Source: Candidatus Omnitrophota bacterium (GTDB taxonomy: Bacteria > Omnitrophota > Gorgyraeia > 2-01-FULL-45-10). From it: a stretch of 64,000 nt of DNA. This document shows, one piece after another, positions 50,201-55,969 of the stretch; the first letter of the stretch is position 1, and the number at the start of each line of letters is the position of its first letter. The DNA is taken from NCBI GenBank assembly GCA_041650805.1, contig JBAZKM010000003.1:156439-220438 (forward strand). Direction: 5' to 3'. Both the position numbers and the translations under genes were made by a program. Below the pieces are notes generated by a model that worked only from the letters and a program-made list of their open reading frames with translations, ran no database searches and had not been told where the DNA came from.

Positions 50201-50455
50201 GGCAGTGCCTTCCTCGCCGGTGTCGATACCGCTAACTTTACGACGGTTTCATACCGGCCGCAGATAGACCTGCTCGAGATGCTGGCTGTGGCGATAGCGC
50301 TCTCTTCCGATAAAGAGCTCATGACCGACTCCGAGATAGAGAAGCGCCTCGGTTTCAGGCGCATCAATAAGCGCATGATCGTCTACCTGCCCGAAGCACA
50401 CCCCATAAACACCGAAGAATACCGCTTCCAGCTGGTTGCTCTCCAAAATGCATAA
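29171..50455 (+). CDS. Giant 7,094-aa multi-domain protein. Order: N-terminal signal/anchor, radical-SAM motif, GNAT, SAM-MTase, wHTH + degenerate Fic/Doc, kinase-like, HD, zincin-like peptidase, ~35x 31-residue repeats, AT-rich module, Rossmann-like region, and a conserved C-terminal domain.
   Basis: Single uninterrupted 21,285-nt ORF in GC-rich DNA. Domain motifs are listed as separate features. Recurring linker motifs delimit the modules. Confidence 0.9.
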   Translation: MFITLKQSNNIARRLVSVILIASFLFTNSDLSLAREIFSDRTTLSPASRFNPLAKIREKDDGTFDIVRDEEGRRDLKDGFKADAEFLYLSRLIGDALGDAVRMKLTYEGLRILIERDLRDTKTEFEHFDPARLYRRDDSYYLPYKSALTGGDLLLRYFVSSTGHKFPDAVKVADLGEGDFVWMETISADGIEASAPNAVLLKRPVDIIDPGEIKTGRDLVRIIDEVLRAPHPAEALQAACHSLAITGHAILAGYEEYLNDEGLGVKNAFSDMLRKVESGKLVWTKDDFGEFKKLVKKIPTIDDPNEDLFVDVLTDFTPDMIRLLANSGYDHSFNLQLTKGCGNQCLICGVSKARGAMHHIPFPIAAKLLRKVNRYQSKLMPYFDSDALHYRDSVVNATYADIVSFARRSGFTWVPTVTHGIGGAKAKGSGDIVREARNYLTISVHVYHHPVMEYVKSKLEGKMTDEALAKRRESIINMYADRFVYLIQGAIDSGKGFQIRLFRPNPDVEYMLQRHLYAYAAVKEIQAIQDEVWSRVKGRIPLDMDRTSDTHVVWIDDAARFLKDLGVPEDIIANTQKAYDDNIYNGASIVGDHYSLIAGPDGSVTMQVREGNNLRFRTVGEMFEGPASEGFGSFVQALKIISSFDYDNPKSSRNSYVSSAKMKDIGTDIEGLILRELRKEIARNPYSDEEVAEKVKEITVYRTMGDFYKLLFSFYLNQDEIRRLSHDPTEGGAALLYQRLKDVPFPVKMEFNIVMQDNELCVFSYSPMDAGRPGFEKDLYNSTRRFELPVRAFASRSEAAQRPPFPGHGPGSPHITQGPDEPAPLISRVDELWGDRPVRVRKIIAAILGDMRGPLTAISVRQAAGNILRDNLMNAKARQGAVDAITFRKWISRTGLISDLLAPADIGESDVAEIFLRHGLKFDRDLRRRLCGPFRDEISLIKKAMNALQEAYDPLLSDTSPDERSKQEFEEKYEFRAYEKGTSFVPVLGILWAVRDQDVVSISYRIANRIADDYRKARKAGRESIFPLIRNTRIRARLLERTAVDIPLAIHIFNDELDSRERGFFLGLIREYFGGEMVSAVSAVMSGRGMDDAVALAGRDRQFIIFSINFFLKSVFFYKSVDMGQLEKLIPDIPVNMGYEDILTAGIRERFSSIGPGTAWAETPEAGGLIGTFGRVNPETAFVPIGKFWPRDRIAYLTEDNSFALMRRRGGHAGYAGVAVDEEDRELLSEGGAVIPGTSTDGSRFVLIQRMIPVGERKVFAWKLKERGISAYSLPLGFITIERDGRRYRDYYPHLDCCLNVIARDFTEDGRVKILIDPLYYKSVKDDPEFRRLLREQGFLPDDVIIISEEDSGLNLANFAETISGDGRRILIFNAGAASTLSRIPLKAGSYEELPEPLYLLAQSGGLQRCASNLFPREEVPLPGAPSYKVDGTAFPPDVIEAIYRSFSDDGRFSRFLEAFRKCGIEIVQITANRYSDKTEALKTMLPYEAAIYVAPREGTEEVLNEILKGFEVILADLRSNWGGIIIDAGPDGENGIRERPPFPGHGPGTPHIAQGPDEPEDLLSPEPQAPGSKPITDAERLNKLDRKLSYIALGVSVPAFLAMLAGIMMGSDIGVAIVGVSSIIGSAALGTTALLRVKWILEPGERKETGGTTPVRVDITEERSERIEVTIERVPGEESEIHIVAKDPEGKEAGRATYMIRSEDAIQLLSIDVFESKKRRSGIGEQLMLRIKDEMVEAGRSEIFLFCLQSNAGAIRFYDKMGERLGMAMTKEDAIFHDQPPAAYKITYRITNDKRQKTNNGNPARNSGPDTITIKPVPPGTFPDLDARGTPQDRPGDQEKRRAQQQKLAVQLLQKEFARKEALVKYGIYTAAELAVVEGLYRRFAVGEDLSHFSPYEKVFIWQYMILMDMHSSSFRMLEEEVNRLAEDLEIDGLYVGFEWNDHMAPEDKVRTVENNISIRPGMRMLDIGCGKGSVIIELARRHAGVEFIGIDANPRNISNALTRLMEMGPEAPRNVRFHMLDCREPVADKAIPRRGIPYGEGAFDVISLMEGVFDEAHSSDSAERLLWREAIRVAGKDGGIVAFFGLAGKNKFEESLPEGVYAEMKDNTFFSIGGRNTRYYFPSWTREDEPSPYRREKTEFCVWRLALRHGEELPGHQVTMSPVASGLQTETAPGPSQPVQQDLPFETEGTPPPASDPSSGRRTQGNFGPGAMNVDEPLGRTSPLSEHAQETLFTARLHFSGEGFTAEDLLGKVASSGTGRILSDLDELERNGYIEAVGSGKTPGFRLTAEATFALITMEYNLSPIYIGELGRRGVDLPADIDNPDELASHIIEFTKGDARIDAKTTLHMILDLTNLLEWEYVYLQALEMKKAGKNWALIDTVGLEEALDKLRPLVSRRLLEVQDLEVGWIGHGLEAARTPPETDDFQKAASLVNRYVTGGLAAGEEELKEIHSVVSEHLKVFSAGRSRNVRRGEYRAYEDAYRDLTYFPLAEKVPDAMAAVFRLIKVPEFMGLHPVEQAAITFYLIHNIQPFDNGNTRTASLFMDCLLMKNNYPPFVISEYNERRFHEVIKFMRRPEPERFNEGSMTQSEFVNDPMKLLGSPDALAKIRRYAREFTAFLAEETARELVLQPPSPGSQTQGSPGHQVTRSPVRGDEGRLAEEAASASGTPDLSGYEPRWVTGVKEVGSDPAGPYEIFIDHGRNYGNYTDVNEALYNGKRYMAKWVSGHGEREGLIASQARVLNYLKDVLSDADLARISMPEYIQLEDGTRMLLFEKFTAGSTMNDIMESGFLALSNKRASLLRAVREIACAVKALHDVNVYHGDITLKNVWVFEDGRIKLFDFDFATMGTAGLRQRGLNLWFVSPERLERAFGKKEATIDKKAAVTDEVCSIGVIMTAVLTGELLFNHVVTGEKAGRKRPMRYDPRTALNAVGVPGRIVEVAVRALADSKDRFQTVDELIRALDGSETPSEPIGKTSPDAGKETFPKDPEPVSGTPETAALRDAIEAAIPQGIGFYKKRNPGQPDETTRRKIDEQNSLAEPLLTRTIERLRAHYPDIAEMLADLYPRVLPYYIAGMDVNYIQHHATVIDFASEIAVGERLDEKESAILILAALFHDSGNGLTTLSKVTATAVHNMPVTTPGERAAREGVIEQAVAFRKEHMEIGAGIVREIIEPYRARAPDILPGEDVSEIERLVLHHDDLKIPLWQENVDTTWLTAKDDRSLQFLMEADALWMLTPLGIRSDIDKSEGEPLSPSAQASFNVGLFRKWKELYDRAFDAETVNGYGFRDGTLLRSHAAYLIYQRLIEEAANDPENVPGRRTTPGNLGPGAMNIDEPFEARGPGPAPKTADRRPADTDFVEKVLDTQISMHGLQRLFDEGLLDKRIALAWYRALVSKGGLTDKELSDEIDGEMDYMPPDELYGALKDRGLNPKNRIVAIEADRVLKGYFDHLRREHGIVLPYGYLSIEDNVVFMPKRKLKRYYDAPKAVTDSFLHKVIISNEFKGKELLTYLIHEGLHLNAVGFYLQGVGGMRGSHLNEGMAEYLTRDAMEFMGVDGGSGLWRKTTAEWKVKAVRIVESMIRYMGERSTLIRAFFNGGIDTLPIIPMTLAKAVIKEKTQVYYDGNKMPFSAARRVIREKTPKDIPDDEIYILAEHDRNGYMLISRYTAAEGNEKGPGLQIVLSSIGVIPEDAPALLSVEAVTGYRALDMSDSMSLLEFFTALERATRTASESDLFFAAGKWESLKASVTAPTLSRVVLEITPYIERGLSLAMERCKAAKREKDDHLSAEAEFDDTADMDEDELAEHFAEKALNGEMPKGLENIFEPQDDDEGGSASDVTVRTASYWRTTPGNLGPGAMNIDEPFGSHKDGPLSIEEAVKRIEALLEDAPRQRSISTKEAVTNVLMSIARDGEFVFNRKQANRVASVRRFGDKLPLLKFLVTYKIKTEDGDRYVFNGGHVAIISPSSRTNQDAERLIVALKDMGITEGAHLAIITASSRSEDEIKKIVPFLRAHGITANSHIASILKSSRDEAEIGGLVSFLGDLGITEPAHITRILTTSRGRKEIEGMVTMLKGLGIVKGAHISYIVQTSRTEAEVKNLIDFLDGLGIRGGFAVASIVHSAREKDDISAIIETLRAAGITEDAHIAMILMSKRTGDEIAGILAKLKKHKIADGVSCSIILRSSRKEEDIEGIVKALKKCGMKSIHIALVISASRTKDQIEKAIRSLALYEIKNPSHIASILACSRSNKEIRMLVSMLVACGITDGAHIALIASTKRSTSEVRRLTGHLRRSGITHPFHIAAIIQSSRPEQGIMSLIEMLKASGITGGASIAMISGSSRSEAEISSVVSSVRSLGIVNSCNIATVVASSRKEEDIERLIRSFRRAGFEEPAHISLMIHSSRTEGEIAEIIAGLDAINISEHSAVARIIHSSRSKAEIEDLVKLLVENNIEKDGHIARIIGSSRPKVEVRSIIKTLKALGIVKPFDMAFIIQGKRSEDDIKEIISMLRKHGINKGFHIAVAIHCSRPKEGIERLLKTLAGQGITGGLDTALVIRSTRDEKEIPDIIETLKAAGIRKSFYLAEVLASSRTKSEIREIVRTLKALGITDAGSIAIVLKGSRSKKAINEMVPVLKAAGFSDERDLAHILLSGRTLAEINVTVSRLKACGIIKSSHIAHLLRTDRPIEEMERIIASLRDSGIRDASAMTRILMGGRSASEIKGLISELCSVSITTPKNIAVIARSDRSTKEMKELVGILNAAGIRDETAVTRIIACDRSNNEIRSVIPALRSLGITKEFHMAMVISTSRTVEDIKKVVEAARSSGINESFHLALVAGSSRRLSDIEGLFRSLEAEGITDQYHKACVVHSERTNAEISSGIALLKSIGVKAPAKIARLLSTSHSDEEFRSTVTLLEGVGITDINRIISILELRRPPAEVGDAFELLRQAGITDNTMSFPIIKRRSAEEIEGIVSLLKYKGIVNTGEIAIVLRSKRSREEIEITLKMLQRFGISESVPRALIIKSRHTAREIEDLIPALRQAGITRSAQIAGILYGEGSKEEIEEKITQKTLPEKEKAAPAPAEVMAQDMAEEMSAQEETMVAPEPVGVSKGKRVMPTLYKTLQSVGLLPKDAARLPADIEKRYSALSITDSMLFLKFFTIMKRVIAQYADGREEAPDEDVFVVASEAWRNIGAIKAGSDVHAIAQSIKGPAEDALAAAMRAIEKAREETARKNLMEERATEEEDEDVLAEQFAESALRGEVPEDLEEALEEVRGELTEQSSAEVLPEPDSELSMEESDAPSAGRTTPGNLGPGAMNIDEPFEAQGPQPTAQSPELPVPDSGLQARPFADVTVTPVVGEAAGVTLRGLYSIPAIPDETTAQPFFSVIMHERYYKEFTEKVVDFLRALEESMNTPKETREEKSKVLQKKYSLHDAMTKSLHKWAEYTLQNTNADGPLYAPGKGFSLYAIILACNTISDFYPQFTHIKPEEWLCYEIASYGKLPLNEKNRNILIKANGYLERVLADEDRTNQICRDLYGEDYRVINLVLKWLGNIAEITAHPAERNKARNFLTYFIKQLLRENRDILEAFASFVFDRFEKAKKQRSGSEENHGIKIAIVLTGAEHLGQWLRIKSKLLGKEIAFQDLSLTLSMFMHLEYINDAGDSGSYILGQSSKESLKQSLHEIGITPSDTRHLILVDTGFEGSINKYIVYPLKEMGVSEELLLLFRKDERSVNTYGFNQEQGWEGSEKRLRKLAHIIDDGFEASTLSPTQFSDITDKKLASTQRPWFCELIKREIELFAYTTSEGLSATQPDIAEDDLVGAAPLTARPFALFPAAGATAEVSTTPAGGVPQSDVSQTVQQIAPETFSGPIGKASPDAGEDTFPKDSEAVSVANEEQEGLIQLYRRLYPVVFEFADQAGIVTGDKVVVIGTHVDWQCGIACALKGADVISIGLESDEDEREFKAADEVRESIEKNGGQYRIMRPYDYLKVPVPESSIKIIVAQNVIDDPEANSPAIVRKMLRDVQDGGYIAVSFLCDEQIWYTNIKRQAERLGFILQESVFADFTGMSGTSYIFRVIKNAPGLTAQSSQPTAQSPVLQAQGSPVTSHQSPVQERGQTPSALSSASAETLEAKSGISKVMLWRRDSTGEGGVVEAADDEIRETAQEIAAGKYKFTYLITGNILSLGIVEDDKKTHHDKVKKPNIEDRPLKGDKMDGQFLILPWEIERRTYAEWREQYIRFARFLIEQGILASEPLQVALKASGVIPKIFEPDPMPETLGELANMSLSNEIAPSSQLPTPNSILQAPSPNLTLQAQESTVHGPRSTKGAPVVVEDKEYGVTLLDDYYTYLPRETYGLSLLGTKVGISNTRYAVVRLKDTTINVATHHSAGYIFPVMAAKDGLINGDEVLLHIDFARHPDDADLILSPPPLGNDIGEHLAFLGPYKDKGFLGPENYLTALKKAFPDLVPVFLKDEDDGHYSWGGIEWAYQGSVIDFLAQIQDKTGGARFPWLARGKIASIDLDIFRCLKDDTTKTEQLLDAIADVAAPAKLIMIFTSPGYLDKEFAITLAERLVEKIARNLQDLAGNDRDVSVNGEGRGQGSQVLVKDIQKRGQTPSTEEHLTRLDNVYFGAFPYNGDTSYVKNEESHVRVPRSRPGRGDMLVDVNSATIFEYGLIESKIKTSPLKVMVSDETDGKVANCHQGEAILIKTENANDVLGTLFLEECDAIGGRTVIKGEPYLFLYHKNDSFRNKSFSTFVQWLLKMSDSVQDLECCISMRRGLDERCAAEYENFQETIADLSSLYPGVRVHAVRSRQEPGLFGSMVVSKYGVTCRTAKYTGRTRRDDATADWANAEVAMVPFAVGSSPKTQEPVFGAHDAQTPNSQPPTPNLTLQAPNSKLQANWPVRLVDTIKIRAMEAKEEGQKLIVGVGTSWIPGYAEQGEEHNGLNPILSELRNLRALDNIVFVDAPDNELAQELIKKADGSKTDYKNVIVLADNKFVSGELKASTEIEKAALDGFRSLANGSAFLAGVDTANFTTVSYRPQIDLLEMLAVAIALSSDKELMTDSEIEKRLGFRRINKRMIVYLPEAHPINTEEYRFQLVALQNA
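30150..30800 (+). other. Radical-SAM-like region of the giant protein.
   Basis: NLQLTKGCGNQCLICG contains CxxxCxxC (Cys codons at 30191, 30203, 30212). Confidence 0.45.
31573..31637 (+). repeat. Linker motif A, copy 1: RPPFPGHGPGSPHITQGPDEP.
   Basis: Near-identical at nucleotide level to 33790-33852. Confidence 0.85.
33790..33852 (+). repeat. Linker motif A, copy 2: RPPFPGHGPGTPHIAQGPDEP.
   Basis: ccgccgttcccgggccacgg...cagggaccggacgaacc. Confidence 0.85.
34165..34495 (+). other. GNAT N-acetyltransferase domain of the giant protein.
   Basis: Motif A RRSGIGEQLM (R/Q-x-x-G-x-G/A), with the beta-strand pattern IHIVAKD...LLSIDVF before it and AIRFYDKMG after it. Confidence 0.6.
35040..35470 (+). 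other. Class I SAM-dependent methyltransferase domain of the giant protein.
   Basis: Motif I MRMLDIGCGKGSVIIELA; acidic post-I residue in FIGIDAN; motif II-like AFDVISLMEGVF. Confidence 0.6.
35776..35830 (+). repeat. Linker motif B, copy 1 (divergent): RRTQGNFGPGAMNVDEPLGRTSP.
   Basis: Related to the three near-identical copies at 39121, 40712 and 45055. Confidence 0.8.
35870..36900 (+). other. Winged-helix + Fic/Doc (Fido)-like domain with a degenerate active-site motif.
   Basis: ILSDLDELERNGYIEAVGSG (wHTH), then AITFYLIHNIQPFDNGNTRTASLF. The canonical HPFx(D/E)GNGRxxR has H->Q and G->T (nt 36769-36798). Confidence 0.45.
37250..37990 (+). other. Protein-kinase-like (ePK/APH superfamily) domain of the giant protein.
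   Basis: AxK YMAKWV; catalytic-loop-like HGDITLKNVWV; DFG-like KLFDFDFA; SPERLE. Confidence 0.55.
38086..38165 (+). repeat. Linker motif C, copy 1: PIGKTSPDAGKETFPKDPEPVSGTPE.
   Basis: Near-identical to 46738-46815 (PIGKASPDAGEDTFPKDSEAVS). Confidence 0.8.
38380..38800 (+). other. HD-domain phosphohydrolase region of the giant protein.
   Basis: LAALFHDSGNG (H..HD) and LVLHHDDLKIP. Confidence 0.55.
39121..39180 (+). repeat. Linker motif B, copy 2: RRTTPGNLGPGAMNIDEPFEA.
   Basis: ~50-nt near-identity with the copies at 40712 and 45055. Confidence 0.9.
39480..39960 (+). other. Zincin-like metallopeptidase (Peptidase_MA-like) region.
   Basis: HEGLH (39706-39720), with NEGMAEYL 25 residues downstream (HExxH + EGxAEY). 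Confidence 0.45.
40712..40765 (+). repeat. Linker motif B, copy 3: RTTPGNLGPGAMNIDEPFG.
   Basis: actacaccgggcaacctcggccccggcgcgatgaatatcgacgagccgttc. Confidence 0.9.
41030..44340 (+). repeat. Array of ~35 tandem 31-residue repeats (~1,100 aa) within the giant protein.
   Basis: Consensus G-I-T-x-x-x-H-I-A-x-I-L-x-S-S-R-S-x-x-E-I-x-x-L-V-x-x-L-x-x-x. The Arg is invariant in nearly every unit. Positions 3-7 and the three residues before the Arg are hypervariable. Confidence 0.85.
45055..45125 (+). repeat. Linker motif B, copy 4: RTTPGNLGPGAMNIDEPFEAQGPQPTAQSPE.
   Basis: Followed by a heptamer-encoded PELPVPDSGLQA linker. Confidence 0.9.
45290..46610 (+). other. Compositionally distinct AT-rich module inside the giant ORF (probable acquired cassette).
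   Basis: ~1.3 kb of visibly lower GC (A/T-rich codons, K/N/I/Y-rich peptide), bounded upstream by linker B copy 4 and downstream by linker C copy 2. Confidence 0.6.
46738..46815 (+). repeat. Linker motif C, copy 2: PIGKASPDAGEDTFPKDSEAVSVANEE.
   Basis: atcgggaaagcgtctcccgatgcgggcgaagacaccttcccgaaggat. Confidence 0.8.
49840..50455 (+). other. Conserved C-terminal domain of the giant protein, shared with the C-terminus of the ORF at 3..1814.
   Basis: Begins after the heptamer-encoded linker PNLTLQAPNSKLQA; colinear similarity to the ORF1 tail. Confidence 0.5.
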
Positions 50456-50975
50456 AAAAGCGTAAATTTTTACGGGTCCTGCCGCTCCCTCGCCTTTTGT
50501 TTCTATAGGGCATTCAACGCTCTCGAGGCGTACCAATGACCGATCGTGGATCCCAGGCGCCGTAGTGCCCTATACTCCAAAAGGCTCGGTCGCGTCACCC
50601 GTAAAAATTTTACCTAGTTCATATAGTAAAAAATTTTTCGTCTCTCATCGAAGGGGCCCCCGATGGTGGGGTATCGACCGGGACCTGAATCCAAATTTTG
50701 ACAGGGCAAAATTTGGATATCGTATCATCAGACGAATATCCAGAATTTGCCATGACAAATTCTGGATGAAAATCGCGAGCGGGCACGGATCCCGCCAAAC
50801 ACCTTTAAAAGAGCGTCTATTGACATAACAGGGCTACCCGACTCGTTTGGCGGGAGAGCGAGCGATTTTCCGGAGTCACATTTTCCTCGCCGGGGAAAAT
50901 GTGACGTTCCCGGGAGATACCCCACCGGAGAGGGGACACGTGGAAAAGACGAAAAATTTGACCTTAAAATTTTAC

Positions 50976-51004
50976 TTGACATATATATACTATTATTGTA
51001 TATA
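50976..51004 (+). promoter_or_regulatory. Sigma70-like promoter of the rimP-nusA-infB operon.
   Basis: TTGACA (50976-50981), 17-nt spacer, TATATA (50999-51004). Shares the TTGACATATATA start with the giant-gene promoter. Confidence 0.5.
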
Positions 51005-51023
51005 TAGTACATACTTTTCTTAA

Positions 51024-51068
51024 AGGAGGAAAAGTGGGTTTAAGCATTGTTTAGACCCATTTTTTTTT
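51024..51068 (+). terminator. Leader element: RBS + 6-codon ORF (GTG..MGLSIV) embedded in a hairpin followed by a T9 run (candidate attenuator upstream of rimP).
   Basis: AGGAGG 51024-51029; GTG 51034; stem gggtttaag/tttagaccc (51036-51058) with loop cattg; T9 at 51060-51068. Confidence 0.45.
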
Positions 51069-51090
51069 GCCCCAAAATCGGAGCCTACAA

Positions 51091-51543
51091 ATGGATGTAA
51101 TAGATAGAGTTAAGGAGTTGATAGCTAAGTATTTAGAAGAAAACGCCATCGAACTCGTGGAGATAACTTACAGGCGCGAACAGCCGGGGATGGTGCTGCG
51201 GCTGCTCGTTGATAAAGAGGGAGGTATCACCATCGCCGAGTGCGAGGAGCTGAATAATCACCTCAGCGAGGCCCTAGATAAAGAGGATATCATAAGCGAC
51301 CGCTACCTGCTTGAGGTCTCATCGCCCGGGCTCGACAGGCCTATGAAGACGGACAGGGACTTCGAGCGCGCCATGGGTAAGGTGCTTGATATAACCACTT
51401 ATGAGCGTATAGACGATAGGAAGACACATGAGGGGAAGCTCGTAGGCATGGACAGGGAGAACGTTGTAATAGAGTCGAACGGCCTGAGCACGGTCATACC
51501 CAGGGCGAAGATCGCCCGCGCGGTGCTTAAGGTAGAGATCTAA
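51091..51543 (+). CDS. rimP: Ribosome maturation factor RimP.
   Basis: MDVIDRVKELIAK...LEVSSPGLDRP. ATG 51091 with a GGAG RBS; the TTG 51067 alternative lies in the T-run. Confidence 0.88.
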   Translation: MDVIDRVKELIAKYLEENAIELVEITYRREQPGMVLRLLVDKEGGITIAECEELNNHLSEALDKEDIISDRYLLEVSSPGLDRPMKTDRDFERAMGKVLDITTYERIDDRKTHEGKLVGMDRENVVIESNGLSTVIPRAKIARAVLKVEI

Positions 51544-51556
51544 CGAGAGGTCAATC

Positions 51557-52756
51557 ATGAACGAAGAACTGATCGCAGTACTTGAACATATGGAGCGCGA
51601 GAAGGGCATCGACAAAGAGCTGCTCTTTAAGGCGATAGAGTCCGCCCTTGTCAGCGCCGCCAGGAAGATACTCGGGAATAAAGAGGCCGATGTGACCGTC
51701 ACCGTAGACAGGGCCACGGCCGAGATAAAGATCCTGAGCGACGGCAAGGAGATAAATTCCGCGGAGTTCGGGAGGATCGCCGCCCAGACTGCCAAGCAGG
51801 TCATAATACAGAAGATACGGGAGGCGGAGCGCGATATAGTGCTTGAGGATTATACCAAGCGTGTCGGCACCATCACCAACGGCGCCGTCCACAGGTTCGA
51901 AAAGGGCGATATCGTAGTGGACCTGGGGAAGACCGAGGCGATACTGCCGAAGTCCCAGCAGTGCCCTCGGGAAAGGTACAGGCAGGGTGACAGGGTACGG
52001 GCATACATACTGGAGGTCAACAAGACCTCTCACGGCCCGCAGGTGATCCTGTCGCGTTCCGATGCGTCCTTCGTGAAGAAGTTATTCGAGATAGAGGTGC
52101 CGGAGATCACCGAGGGGATAGTGGAGGTCAGGGCCATATCCCGCGAGGCCGGCGAAAGGACGAAGATCGCCGTATGGTCCAAGGACGAGAAGGTGGATGC
52201 GGTAGGGGCATGCGTGGGCATGCGCGGCTCGCGTGTAAAGGATATAGTGCGGGAACTCCAGGGCGAAAGGGTCGACATAGTACGGTGGTCGGACGACATA
52301 CGGGAGTACGTCAAGGCGGCGCTCTCCCCGGCAGAGATCCAGGAGATGAAGATCGACAAGGCCAATAAGAAGGTCGAAGCGATCCTGCCCGATGACCAGC
52401 TCTCGATAGGGATAGGTAAACACGGACAGAACGTGCGCCTTGCCTCGAAACTGACCGGTTGGGAGATAGATATACGGGGCAAAGAACCGAAGGTTAAGGT
52501 CGAGGTTAAGGCTGAGGAAGCGGTTCAGGAGGAAGCCGGGAGTTTGGAGTCAGGGGTTGGGAGTAAAGAAAAAACTAAAGAGATAAAGATCACGGACCTG
52601 GAAGGTGTCGGAGCGAAGACAGGCAAGGTCCTGACAGAGGCCGGTTACGATACGGTGGAGAAGATAAAGGCCCTTACGATAGAAGACATGACGAAACTCG
52701 AAGGCATAGGGAAGAAGACGGCGGAGAAGATACTGAAGTCGGCAAAGGAGCTATAG
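51557..52756 (+). CDS. nusA: Transcription termination/antitermination factor NusA.
   Basis: N-terminal domain, S1 domain, two KH domains (GACVGMRGSRVK), C-terminal HhH repeats. Confidence 0.95.
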   Translation: MNEELIAVLEHMEREKGIDKELLFKAIESALVSAARKILGNKEADVTVTVDRATAEIKILSDGKEINSAEFGRIAAQTAKQVIIQKIREAERDIVLEDYTKRVGTITNGAVHRFEKGDIVVDLGKTEAILPKSQQCPRERYRQGDRVRAYILEVNKTSHGPQVILSRSDASFVKKLFEIEVPEITEGIVEVRAISREAGERTKIAVWSKDEKVDAVGACVGMRGSRVKDIVRELQGERVDIVRWSDDIREYVKAALSPAEIQEMKIDKANKKVEAILPDDQLSIGIGKHGQNVRLASKLTGWEIDIRGKEPKVKVEVKAEEAVQEEAGSLESGVGSKEKTKEIKITDLEGVGAKTGKVLTEAGYDTVEKIKALTIEDMTKLEGIGKKTAEKILKSAKEL

Positions 52757-54984
52757 TGAAGAAAGAGAAAGAAGTTAAAAAGAAGAGACCGGTGGCTAAA
52801 GCAGCGGAAGTTAAACCGAAGACGAAGAAAGTTGCGGCGAAGACGGCTTCCGTGAAGAAAAAGGCACCTGTCAAAAAGGTTATCGAGAAAGAAGCGCCTG
52901 TTCTTAAAGCAGCGAAGATCGAAGTCAAAAAAGAGGCGCCGAAAGTATCGATAAGACCGCAGGCCCCGGTCACGCCAACGGTAACGGTCAAGAAAGAGGT
53001 CCCGCCGGCCCCAAAGCCGGTCATGCCGCCGAAACCTATTCCCGCGGAAAAACCTCTGCCTCCAAAGCCGGTACAAAAGGCGGCGCCTGCCGCTCCTGTT
53101 ATAAAGGAGAAGGCGGCCCCGCCTCCTCCGCCTAAGCCCGAATTGAAACCGCCACCGCCGCCTGAAGTGAAGATAGAGGTGAAACCGCAGGCAGCCGAGC
53201 CGCCCAAACCCAGGATACTGGAATTCGAAGTCCCCATCTCACTGAAAGATCTGGCCCTGAAGATCGGTGTCAGGGCCAATGAGCTCATATTGAAATTGAT
53301 GGCGAAGAATATCATGGTCACCATAACCCAGAATATAGCCGAAGACCTCGTTGAAAATATATTGAAGGAGTACAACATAGAATACAGGAAGCCGGCCAAA
53401 GTCGAAGAGCAGGTCGCGAGAGAGCACATGGAGGCGGAGGAGAAGCAGGACCTGCAACACATCGTATCGCGCCCGCCTGTGGTCACGTTCATGGGCCACG
53501 TCGACCACGGCAAGACGAGCCTCCTCGACTTCATACGCAAAACGCGTGTCGCGGACAAGGAGAAGGGCGGCATAACCCAGCATATAGGCGCATACGAAGC
53601 GAAGATAAAAAAGGGTTCGGTGACCTTCCTCGACACGCCCGGTCATGAGGCCTTCACGGCCATGAGGGCGCGCGGGGCCAACGCTACCGATGTCGTGGTC
53701 CTGGTAGTCGCCGCCGACGACGGCATCATGCCGCAGACGAAAGAGGCGATCGACCACGCAAGGGCGGCGGGCGTCCCTATAGTGGTGGCCATAAATAAAT
53801 GCGACCTGCCGTCGGCCAACATAGAGAAGGTCAAAGGGCAGCTATCGCAGGTAGGCCTGAGCCCGGAGGGCTGGGGCGGGAAGACGATCACCGTCCCCGT
53901 ATCCGCCAAGACGGGCGAAGGGGTAGATGCTCTTCTTGAGATGCTCCTCCTGGAATCGGAGCTCCTTGAATTAAAGGCAAACCCGCACCTCAGGGCGCGC
54001 GGTGTCGTCATAGAGGGAAAGCTGTCGAGCGGCCAGGGGCCGGTCGCAACCGTCCTGGTGAAGAACGGTACTCTGAAGGTCGGGGACATGGTATTGAGCG
54101 GCATGCACTACGGCAGGGTCAAGGCGATGATGGACCACACGGGCAAACGCATATCAGAGGCACCGCCCTCGAAGCCGGTCAGCATACTCGGCCTTTCCGG
54201 GGTCCCGATGGCCGGAGATGAGTTCTTCGCCGTAAAAGACGAGAGGAAGGCGCGCACGCTCTCACTCCTGAAGCAGGATGAGGCGCGCACGAGGAAGATG
54301 AAGCTGTCGAGAAGGGTGACGCTCGAAGATTTCTACAAGCAGATGAAGAACGGCGCCGCGAAAGAGCTGGCCATAATACTCAAGGGCGATGTCCAGGGAT
54401 CGATCGAGGCGCTCCAGCAGTCGCTTATGGACATGGGCACATCGGAGGTCAAGGTCCATATCATCCACTCCGATGTCGGGAATATCAATGAGTCCGACAT
54501 CATGCTTGCGATGGTGTCGAACGCGGTCATCATGGGTTTCAACGTGAGGGTGGATGAGGGGGCCGAGGCCCTGGCCGCCAAAGAGGACATAGAGATAAAG
54601 CTGTACGGTATCATATACGAGGCGATCCAGGATGTTATGGCGGCCATGGAAGGGCTTCTGGAACCGTTCTCCAAGGAGGTCTTCCTGGGCCGCGCGGTCG
54701 TCAAGCAGGTCTTCAAGGTATCGAAGGCCGGTACGATAGCGGGCTGTTCGGTGGTCAAGGGAAAGATAGCCAGGAGCGGCCTGACGAAATTGATACGCAA
54801 TAAAGAGGTCATATACCAGGGCAAGATAGCGTCGCTCAAACGTTTCAAGGACGACGCGCGTGACGTAGCCGAAGGGTTCGAATGCGGCATAGGTCTGGAT
54901 AGGCACGATGATATTCGTGAAGGCGATATCATCGAGCAGCACCAGATCGAGAAGGTGGCCCGGCGGCTTGAGGCGAGGAAATAG
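52756..54984 (+). CDS. infB: Translation initiation factor IF-2.
   Basis: K/P/A-rich N-terminus; G domain VVTFMGHVDHGKTSLLD, DTPGHEAF, NKCD; 742 aa. Confidence 0.95.
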   Translation: MKKEKEVKKKRPVAKAAEVKPKTKKVAAKTASVKKKAPVKKVIEKEAPVLKAAKIEVKKEAPKVSIRPQAPVTPTVTVKKEVPPAPKPVMPPKPIPAEKPLPPKPVQKAAPAAPVIKEKAAPPPPPKPELKPPPPPEVKIEVKPQAAEPPKPRILEFEVPISLKDLALKIGVRANELILKLMAKNIMVTITQNIAEDLVENILKEYNIEYRKPAKVEEQVAREHMEAEEKQDLQHIVSRPPVVTFMGHVDHGKTSLLDFIRKTRVADKEKGGITQHIGAYEAKIKKGSVTFLDTPGHEAFTAMRARGANATDVVVLVVAADDGIMPQTKEAIDHARAAGVPIVVAINKCDLPSANIEKVKGQLSQVGLSPEGWGGKTITVPVSAKTGEGVDALLEMLLLESELLELKANPHLRARGVVIEGKLSSGQGPVATVLVKNGTLKVGDMVLSGMHYGRVKAMMDHTGKRISEAPPSKPVSILGLSGVPMAGDEFFAVKDERKARTLSLLKQDEARTRKMKLSRRVTLEDFYKQMKNGAAKELAIILKGDVQGSIEALQQSLMDMGTSEVKVHIIHSDVGNINESDIMLAMVSNAVIMGFNVRVDEGAEALAAKEDIEIKLYGIIYEAIQDVMAAMEGLLEPFSKEVFLGRAVVKQVFKVSKAGTIAGCSVVKGKIARSGLTKLIRNKEVIYQGKIASLKRFKDDARDVAEGFECGIGLDRHDDIREGDIIEQHQIEKVARRLEARK

Positions 54985-54985
54985 C

Positions 54986-55969
54986 ATGGAGAAGCGGATA
55001 CTGAGCGGGATGAGGCCTACGGGGAAACTGCACATAGGCCATCTTGTGGGCGCCCTGACGAACTGGGCGAAACTGCAGGATTCGTACAAATGTTTTTACA
55101 TGATCGCGGACTGGCATGCCCTTATGAGCGAGTACGAGAATCCCAAGGGGATGAGCGAGAATAGTTTCGAAGTGGCCCGCGACTTCATAGCCGCCGGCCT
55201 TGACCCGGAAAGATCGGTGATATTCATCCAGTCGCATGTGCCGGAGCACCTGGAGCTTGCCATGGTATTCTCGGACATCACGCCCCTGTCGTGGGTGGAG
55301 CGCTGCCCTACATATAAGGAGCAGCTGCGCGAGCTTAAAGGGCGCGAACTTACCACTTACGGTTTCCTGGGCTACCCGGTGCTCCAGGCAGCGGACATAG
55401 CCGTTTACCGGGCAGGCCATGTCCCTGTCGGGATAGACCAGCTTCCGCACCTGGAGCTGACGCGGGAGATCATACGCAAGTTCAACACCCTGTATAAGAA
55501 GAACGTATTCCCGGAGCCGGAACCGATCCTGACGAAGACGCCGAAGCTTCTGGGCCTGGACAACAGGAAGATGTCGAAGAGTTATAAGAATTTCATCGCG
55601 CTGGCCGATACGCCCGAGGTCGTTTCCAAAAAAGTGGCGCAGATGATAACCGATCCCGAGAGGATAAAATTGGCCGACAAGGGCCATCCCGACATATGCA
55701 ATGTCTTCAGCTACTATATGATATTCGGCAGCGAGACGCTCAGAAAAGACGCCAGGTACTGGTGCGAGAACGCAAAGAAGGGGTGCACGGAATGCAAGAA
55801 GTGCCTGGCCGGTGTCATCATAGAGACCCTTGAGCCGATACGCGAAAGGCGCTCTGTGCTTTCGGATGACAATATAGCGGATATATTAAAGGAAGGGGCA
55901 AAGAAGGCCCGTGCCGCGGCCTCGGAGACGATGGACGAGGTTAAGCGGCTTATAAATTTCGTAAAATGA
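54986..55969 (+). CDS. trpS: Tryptophan--tRNA ligase.
   Basis: HIGH (KLHIGHLVG) and KMSKS (RKMSKSYKN). The ATG 54986 follows the infB stop; the longer ORF from 54908 overlaps infB. Confidence 0.93.
   Translation: MEKRILSGMRPTGKLHIGHLVGALTNWAKLQDSYKCFYMIADWHALMSEYENPKGMSENSFEVARDFIAAGLDPERSVIFIQSHVPEHLELAMVFSDITPLSWVERCPTYKEQLRELKGRELTTYGFLGYPVLQAADIAVYRAGHVPVGIDQLPHLELTREIIRKFNTLYKKNVFPEPEPILTKTPKLLGLDNRKMSKSYKNFIALADTPEVVSKKVAQMITDPERIKLADKGHPDICNVFSYYMIFGSETLRKDARYWCENAKKGCTECKKCLAGVIIETLEPIRERRSVLSDDNIADILKEGAKKARAAASETMDEVKRLINFVK

Follow-up and report, generated by a model that had tools for sequence, protein, structure and literature searches.

What sets transcription of the rimP-nusA-infB operon in an uncultured member of the Omnitrophota? 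The question is raised by a short leader in a 64,000-nucleotide stretch of DNA from Candidatus Omnitrophota bacterium (GCA_041650805.1, contig JBAZKM010000003.1, forward strand, positions 156,439 to 220,438). This whole stretch is referred to here as the window, and positions are counted from its first letter. A sequence-only reading of the leader had proposed transcription attenuation, with translation of a six-codon open reading frame (mini-ORF) melting the terminator. Its call of a transcription-attenuation leader is upheld, as a promoter and an intrinsic terminator stand before the operon and are conserved in relatives. The element is very probably a general rimP-leader attenuator. It is not new: it is a member, in a new phylum, of a kind that was described in 2010 and whose mechanism has been studied in Bacillus subtilis.

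Anatomy and conservation of the leader terminator

The features of the leader are as follows.

50976-50981, + strand: -35 hexamer TTGACA (read from the sequence; 6/6 consensus)
50999-51004, + strand: -10 hexamer TATATA after a 17-nt spacer (4/6 against TATAAT)
51011, + strand: predicted transcription start, an A 7 nt past the -10 (from promoter geometry)
51013-51035, + strand: 5'-proximal hairpin P1, ACUUUUCUU / AGGAAAAGU, loop AAAGG (minimum free energy [MFE] -6.6 kcal/mol, z = -2.9)
51024-51029, + strand: Shine-Dalgarno (SD)-like AGGAGG (read from the sequence)
51034-51054, + strand: mini-ORF GTG GGT TTA AGC ATT GTT TAG (present; as a functional unit not supported by comparison)
51035-51059, + strand: terminator hairpin with the (G)UGGGU...ACCCA signature, 10 bp (from sequence, folding, and covariance model)
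51060-51068, + strand: U9 tract of the intrinsic terminator, directly after the stem (read from the sequence)
51080-51083, + strand: rimP's own SD, GGAG, 7 nt 5' of its ATG (read from the sequence)

The terminator stem pairs T51035-G51044 with T51050-A51059 around the loop CATTG (51045-51049), with three G-C pairs at its base and two G-U pairs, and the hairpin alone folds at -12.2 kcal/mol. The 86-nt leader region has a z-score of -3.26, and its MFE form is a 20-bp stem of -25.5 kcal/mol. The T9 at 51060-51068 is the only run of at least nine T's on either strand of the window, and the + strand carries just two compact elements made of a hairpin and a T-run, the rimP-leader one included. A terminator scan of the window did not list the hairpin at 51035-51068. 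The likely cause is a longer form of the stem, in which the A/G tract pairs with the T-run and the tail is consumed. The AGGAGG, the mini-ORF codons, and the T9 before rimP were all found where the sequence-only reading had placed them, as was a hairpin followed by nine T's. The stem, however, is 10 rather than 9 bp long, and the distance from the end of the T-run to the rimP ATG (51091) is 22 nt (51069-51090) and not 24.

The promoter that had been read, TTGACA-17-TATATA, is present at 50976-51004, though its -10 matches consensus at only four of six positions. TTGACA stands in the same register relative to the leader in seven relatives (L083, L001, L002, L088, L089, L093, and L084), and the -10 of relatives at the same spacing is TATAAA or TATAAT. 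The distance from the -10 to the leader's ACTTTTC is 8 nt both in the window and in L083, where the CA dinucleotide of the predicted start is also found at the same place. A promoter scan did not list TTGACA-17-TATATA because TATATA has no T at hexamer position 6.

The spacer and -10 region (50982-51006) is an AT-only near-palindrome (TATATATACTAT / ATTGTATATATA), and the matching spacers of the closest leaders, L083 and L001, differ from it in sequence. It could be an operator or plain AT-rich drift.

Retrieval based on NusA yielded 80 loci from species-representative genomes, and retrieval based on RimP added 12 metagenome loci; the nearest relatives are Omnitrophota metagenome-assembled genomes (MAGs), with NusA identity of up to 75%. 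A scan without any sequence requirement, in which T-runs 5' of rimP were taken with the best adjacent hairpin in 39 relatives, recovers (A/G)AGTGGG-loop-CCCAC-T6-9 5' of rimP in most of them. The usual promoter in relatives is TTGACA-N17-TAnAAT, 54-77 nt 5' of the GTG. A pattern census finds GTGGG-loop-CCC(A/G)(C)-T5-11 in 48 distinct leaders, with MAG labels that include Omnitrophota, Planctomycetota (e.g. Scalindua and Isosphaeraceae), Elusimicrobiota, Hydrogenedentota, Sumerlaeaceae, and Nitrospiraceae. Desulfobacterota relatives carry CGGGC...GCCCG-T6 in place of GTGGG...CCCAC. The signature is specific to the operon leader, with ~32 of the 41 matches to a stricter pattern (1.1 Mb, both strands) falling in a rimP/nusA leader. 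It can be sharpened to (A/G)AGUGGG-loop-CCCAC-U(n), reaching Omnitrophota, Planctomycetota, Elusimicrobiota, Hydrogenedentota, Sumerlaeota, and Nitrospirota.

We also find that the signature stays with nusA-infB where rimP is missing, which is the new comparative point. Specifically, in ~15 loci without detectable rimP (L030, L031, L033, L035, L036, L038, L039, L040, L045, L046, L048, L053, L058, L072, and L075), the motif lies before nusA, 21-116 nt 5' of the gene, with unrelated genes upstream and infB downstream.

A covariance model (R1) was built from an alignment (A2) of 44 relatives, with the window left out. It matches 51030-51067 at 35.4 bits (E = 1.6e-6), the sole strong match in the window. 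The next match overall, at 15.4 bits (E 0.28), is in Escherichia coli and falls on the t2 terminator just 5' of rimP; this match is weak, yet it lies exactly on the described element. In A2, 94% of cells are paired over the seven modelled pairs, vs 34-52% after a shift of the 3' partners by 1-3 columns. Compensatory changes occur at pairs 6-7 (U-A, C-G, G-U, and A-U) in 16 cells, a value that none of 500 shuffles reaches, and the three G-C pairs never vary among the 44 relatives.

Within the window, the next R1 match scores 12.6 bits and is on the minus strand. This weak match, together with an upstream A/G tract that mirrors the T tract, is what a bidirectional terminator acting mainly to halt antisense or convergent transcription could claim. 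We regard such a role as extremely improbable: both neighboring genes are on the + strand, hence there is no convergent unit, the minus-strand tail is only TTTTCCTCC, and GTGGG...CCCAC-T(n) has the same orientation with respect to nusA in every relative.

The mini-ORF and the upstream purine motif

Does translation of the mini-ORF control this terminator? Attenuation by the ribosome would have it start at GTG 51034 by means of the AGGAGG, translate six codons, and melt the stem, so that translation capacity (e.g. the level of IF2) sets read-through. A ribosome translating through a terminator can block it in attenuators of the pyrBI type. The SD-like motif is strong and stands 4 nt 5' of the GTG, the sequence GAAAGGRG is kept in all 25 leaders of the window's Omnitrophota group, and in the closest relatives the ORF likewise ends within the hairpin (VGLIK*, VGLLK*, VGLLN*, and VGLRN*).

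Comparison nonetheless argues against this mechanism. The GTG is found in 48/48 leaders, including those without an SD-like motif (L020, L022-L024, L054, L060, and L076), and is therefore part of the invariant GUGGG stem arm; leaders with GTGGG and no SD-like motif come from Planctomycetota, Hydrogenedentota, Sumerlaeota, and Nitrospirota. The spacing between the SD-like motif and the GTG varies from 2 to ~17 nt, and ORF length varies from two codons (L002 and L011) to 4-7 in the nearest relatives. Many other ORFs continue across the U-tract and reach or overrun the rimP ATG. Within the hairpin, the GTG frame has a stop in 14/48 leaders vs 17/48 and 10/48 in the other frames, so there is no selection for an ORF that ends there. 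The in-frame TAG or TAA of close relatives is the complement of the stem's UUUA (UA(G/A)ACCC), and the peptides share only the stem-encoded Val-Gly(-Leu).

Structure and timing point the same way. P1 partly sequesters the SD-like motif of the mini-ORF, and neither folding nor RNAalifold finds an alternative pairing for the GGG or CCC arms, i.e. no antiterminator. With a predicted 5' end at ~51011, only 23 nt before the GTG, the full 30S site would be exposed only once the polymerase is on the U-tract, leaving no lead time. More initiation would also yield more IF2, a positive rather than homeostatic feedback.

The claim that mini-ORF translation melts the terminator is thus not supported, given the invariant stem GTG, the variable spacing and length, and the stop-frame counts, and we judge ribosome-mediated attenuation very unlikely here. 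Compared across relatives, as the sequence-only reading had suggested, the hairpin and T-run are conserved and the mini-ORF is not. The mini-ORF is probably a by-product of the conserved stem sequence, and a six-codon "leader peptide" should not be annotated at this rimP leader.

The window resembles leader-peptide attenuators (trp/his and pyrBI) in having a short ORF associated with a leader terminator. In those systems, the leader ORF starts well upstream, pause sites or alternative hairpins are present, and regulatory codons are conserved. In the window, by contrast, the start codon falls within the stem of the terminator, the ORF lacks conservation, and there is no alternative structure.

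What, then, is the purine motif? AGGAGG is not rare, with 51 copies across the 64-kb window, and its meaning therefore has to rest on comparison. Within the window's Omnitrophota group, 25/25 leaders have GAAAGGRG 5' of the hairpin. For the window and its closer relatives, P1 arises by pairing of this purine tract with a pyrimidine run on its 5' side. P1 starts 2 nt from the predicted 5' end and half-sequesters the AGGAGG at 51024-51029. Hairpins of the same layout, though differing in stem sequence, are found in relatives, with z <= -2 in 9 of 19 folded leaders, window included. Their stems include ACUUUUC / GAAAAGU, ACUUUAUU / AAUAAAGU, UAUUCC / GGAAUA, GAUAAC.CUC / GAG.GUUAUC, and AAUAACGCC / GGCGUUAUU. 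MAFFT with RNAalifold on the eight closest leaders did not recover P1 and preferred a pairing of the purine tract with the U-tract; MAFFT had misaligned the 5' strands of P1. As a clade-wide structure, P1 is only partly upheld. A function of P1 as antiterminator was rejected, as it overlaps the terminator stem only at the outermost base, U51035, and not at the GGG core.

Candidate roles of P1 and GAAAGGRG are a 5' stabilizing hairpin, a STAB-SD-like 30S site, a remnant or displaced rimP SD, and an A/G tract that strengthens the terminator. One reading gives the motif a separate, added 5' function, in which it would bind the 16S 3' end of the 30S subunit without translation. It would then either protect the 5' end of the operon mRNA in the manner of STAB-SD or cover the 5' arm of the terminator, so that read-through would depend on the pool of free 30S subunits. 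In STAB-SD, 30S subunits bind an SD-like sequence close to a 5' end; it directs no translation and blocks 5'-3' decay (Agaisse and Lereclus 1996; PMC4113751). The window is similar in that its SD-like purine motif is close to the mRNA 5' end with no credible gene after it. In contrast to STAB-SD, part of the motif is taken up by pairing in P1, a terminator adjoins it directly, and a stabilizing role is putative.

Several observations are consistent with 30S binding. The motif is conserved near the predicted 5' end while its distance to the hairpin varies, GAAAGGAGG amounts to an extended SD complement, and two products of the operon, RimP and IF2, have the 30S subunit as their site of action (PMC2965389). 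Against it, P1 half buries the motif in the window and nearest relatives, P1 reaches z <= -2 in fewer than half of the folded leaders, and the favored RNAalifold pairing takes the purine tract to the U-tract. In addition, the relevant 5'-3' exonuclease pathway has no supporting evidence in Omnitrophota, and where the rimP ATG lies 3-6 nt past the U-tract the motif could be a displaced rimP SD. Altogether, we consider a separate 30S-binding function unlikely.

A dual-input attenuator without a leader peptide, which we consider improbable, would in this Omnitrophota clade combine the ancient NusA-type terminator with a second input. The extended SD-like GAAAGGRG, placed in or beside P1 and against the 5' arm of the terminator, would pair with the 16S 3' end when 30S subunits are free, whether or not translation starts at the stem GUG. 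If true, 30S binding would hinder the hairpin, and read-through into rimP (30S maturation), nusA, and infB (30S initiation) would rise with the idle 30S pool.

In many relatives (L004, L005, L008-L015, L017, L020, and L026), the rimP ATG is just 3-8 nt past the U-tract and has no SD of its own. The sole SD-like motif in these short-gap leaders sits 5' of the terminator hairpin, and L020 is without any. A split ribosome site for rimP made of SD, hairpin, and AUG, with the ATG 3-6 nt past the U-tract, was considered and rejected: the distances are too great and too variable, and in the window rimP is preceded by an SD of its own.

Candidate effector and feedback

How might the terminator be regulated? 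The reading that we favor, and hold to be probable, is a rimP-leader attenuator in which NusA-stimulated termination gives negative feedback. The sigma-70-type promoter (50976-51004) would start the transcript at ~51011. After the short P1 hairpin, the RNA would form an intrinsic terminator (UGGGU.../...ACCCA plus U9) of predicted modest strength. All transcription into rimP-nusA-infB would have to read through it, because the 22 nt before rimP are too short for another promoter, and operon output would be set there. NusA on the elongating polymerase would stimulate termination, as homology with the B. subtilis and E. coli operons suggests. Excess NusA would lower transcription of nusA, rimP, and infB, i.e. 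a negative feedback, and the terminated product would be a leader RNA of ~56-58 nt.

NusA as the effector is fairly likely, and the link to NusA autoregulation drawn by the sequence-only reading is apt. In B. subtilis, the nusA leader has a NusA-stimulated intrinsic terminator that mediates autoregulation, according to the account of Mondal et al. (2016) cited in PMC12288461. Two terminators, t1 and t2, precede rimP in E. coli, where NusA controls its own operon (PMC6511841), and NusA helps suboptimal terminator hairpins to form (PMC8060035). The retention of the motif before nusA in the rimP-less loci argues against a need for cis-encoded RimP.

A number of points weigh against NusA feedback. 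The dependence on NusA is drawn entirely from homology, and a general aid to hairpins by NusA would leave the invariant GUGGG/CCCAC unexplained, so that there could be another, specific sensor. As nusA is followed by infB in each rimP-less locus that is long enough to show it, NusA and IF2 are inseparable by context. The perfect U9 and three adjacent G-C pairs may give fairly good termination without any factor. The pattern behind the 48 leaders demanded TGG[GC]...[GC]CC[AG], and the GGG/CCC invariance is partly built in by construction; independent support therefore comes from the unbiased hairpin scan and the published description. Lastly, no element was found 5' of rimP in five relatives (L007, L019, L025, L027, and L042), and in these rimP directly follows another gene.

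The strength of the terminator also bears on a constitutive element with no sensing factor, i.e. a partial terminator or stabilizing hairpin that damps a strong promoter, or the end of a stand-alone ~57-nt RNA. The perfect U9, the three G-C pairs at the stem base, the lack of any antiterminator or ligand-binding structure in the leader, and the absence of an Rfam family match are all compatible with it. Yet the sequence of the stem, beyond its pairing, is conserved across several phyla only in the operon leader, which argues for specific recognition, homologous leaders are regulated in B. subtilis and E. coli, and the 22 nt before rimP leave no space for a second promoter. We therefore see an unregulated element as quite unlikely. 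The invariant stem sequence points to a specific recognition step, and the question of what lies behind it is already in the literature.

The operon, its surroundings, and known systems

The element marks the start and control point of rimP-nusA-infB in this uncultured Omnitrophota genome, which is of use for annotation. The encoding of NusA and IF2 by the operon, as had been read, is confirmed by NCBIfam, which identifies all three genes and places trpS and then scpA downstream of infB.

51091-51543, + strand: rimP, 150 aa (NCBIfam RimP models, E 7e-42)
51557-52756, + strand: nusA, 399 aa, the presumed effector (TIGR01953, 362.8 bits, above cut-off)
52756-54984, + strand: infB, IF2 (TIGR00487, 765.6 bits; start codon per ORF listing)

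As listed, infB starts with a GTG whose first base (52756) is also the final base of the nusA stop codon, and its last 77 nt (54908-54984) are shared with the trpS ORF. The trpS family match begins at residue 27, and the true trpS start is therefore probably near 54986.

Upstream, a single ORF of 7094 aa (29171-50455, + strand) ends 520 nt 5' of the promoter, and Omnitrophota are known for such giant genes (bioRxiv 10.1101/2023.11.21.568195). NCBIfam gave no family for the small upstream ORFs at 50565-50828 (+), 50728-51012 (-), and 50847-51023 (+). Between this giant ORF and the rimP promoter, the spacer shows an unusual degree of structure at 50680-50945 (266 nt, MFE -104.6 kcal/mol, z = -6.06). 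It holds perfect or near-perfect inverted repeats (50689-50718, 50738-50767, and 50875-50905) and a nested long-range stem (50768-76/50862-70 with 50790-800/50845-55). The same 50680-50945 region has no Rfam match, no small-ORF protein family, and no homolog among the fetched loci.

In a sister sub-clade, an insert of 95-170 nt separates the terminator of the rimP-leader from the start codon of rimP (L085:1053-1203, L091:1065-1203, L090:136-307, L084:537-670, and L088:808-902). The insert has two hairpins, of which the longer (UUCCGAAAGAUAC...GAUCUUUCGGAA) is conserved, and over the whole consensus structure 11 pairs are maintained despite substitutions in both partners. Rfam has no match for the insert, and the window is without it. 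This insert may be a second, undescribed leader element.

With which known family does the window's terminator belong? Rfam scans of 50300-51300 (1001 nt) and 50995-51100 (106 nt), at E up to 10, gave only sub-threshold chance matches. RF00558 (L20_leader) scores 17-19 bits in the window (50940-51074) and 35.5 in L088:687-814, vs a gathering score of 58.7. These matches arise because the L20 terminator is also of the form GxGGG...CCCxC-U7; the family was rejected, since the alignment fits the terminator half alone and sets the model's 5' half against promoter DNA.

RF01770 is the rimP leader of Gammaproteobacteria, with E. coli t1 and t2 between metY and rimP. Its 3' half is the same kind of hairpin, and the E. 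coli K-12 leader reads CUGGGC-UUUA-GGCCC-U7, 20 nt 5' of rimP. In contrast to the window, RF01770 is a 102-nt leader of two hairpins that includes an upstream inverse CCCg...cGGG terminator/antiterminator. The E. coli locus also differs in its upstream tRNA gene; a tRNA search for a metY-like gene upstream found no tRNA gene anywhere in the window. With E values up to 10 allowed, RF01770 gives no match in the scanned stretches of the window (gathering score 47 bits), while the E. coli leader, as a positive control, scores 102 bits. Given that RF01770 is not matched and the general features are present, the window belongs to the general motif and not to RF01770. The leader of B. subtilis nusA (ylxS/rimP) likewise has a terminator in the 5' leader of a NusA-encoding operon, and differs in its length of ~180 nt (PMC2965389), compared with ~24 nt before the hairpin in the window.

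The general rimP-leader was described as a short terminator with a conserved GGGc(...)gCCC stem, a G-rich 5' arm, and a C-rich 3' arm, followed by a T-stretch and located 4-130 nt from the gene start (Naville and Gautheret 2010, Genome Biol 11:R97; PMC2965389). According to the same work, it has no antiterminator, and the motif is absent from other terminators. A termination factor that recognizes the sequence was proposed there, with NusA as the best candidate because it represses the operon in E. coli.

The window agrees with this description in its structural features. Its element is in the 5' UTR of rimP-nusA-infB, between a conserved promoter and the rimP ATG; the hairpin has the GGG...CCC core with a G-rich 5' arm and a C-rich 3' arm; and T9 follows the stem immediately. 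The 22 nt from terminator to start are inside the 4-130 nt range, and just ~24 nt precede the stem, with no visible antiterminator or large sensor.

What the window contributes is breadth, with no new principle. It differs from the general rimP-leader as follows. The fourth pair is U-A (GGGu...aCCC) instead of C-G, with either GGGU/ACCC or GGGC/GCCC found in relatives, and the host is from Omnitrophota, a phylum without genomes in the 2010 survey. The window's clade adds the upstream GAAAGGRG motif and the P1 hairpin, and some related genomes, with rimP absent, carry the motif directly before nusA.

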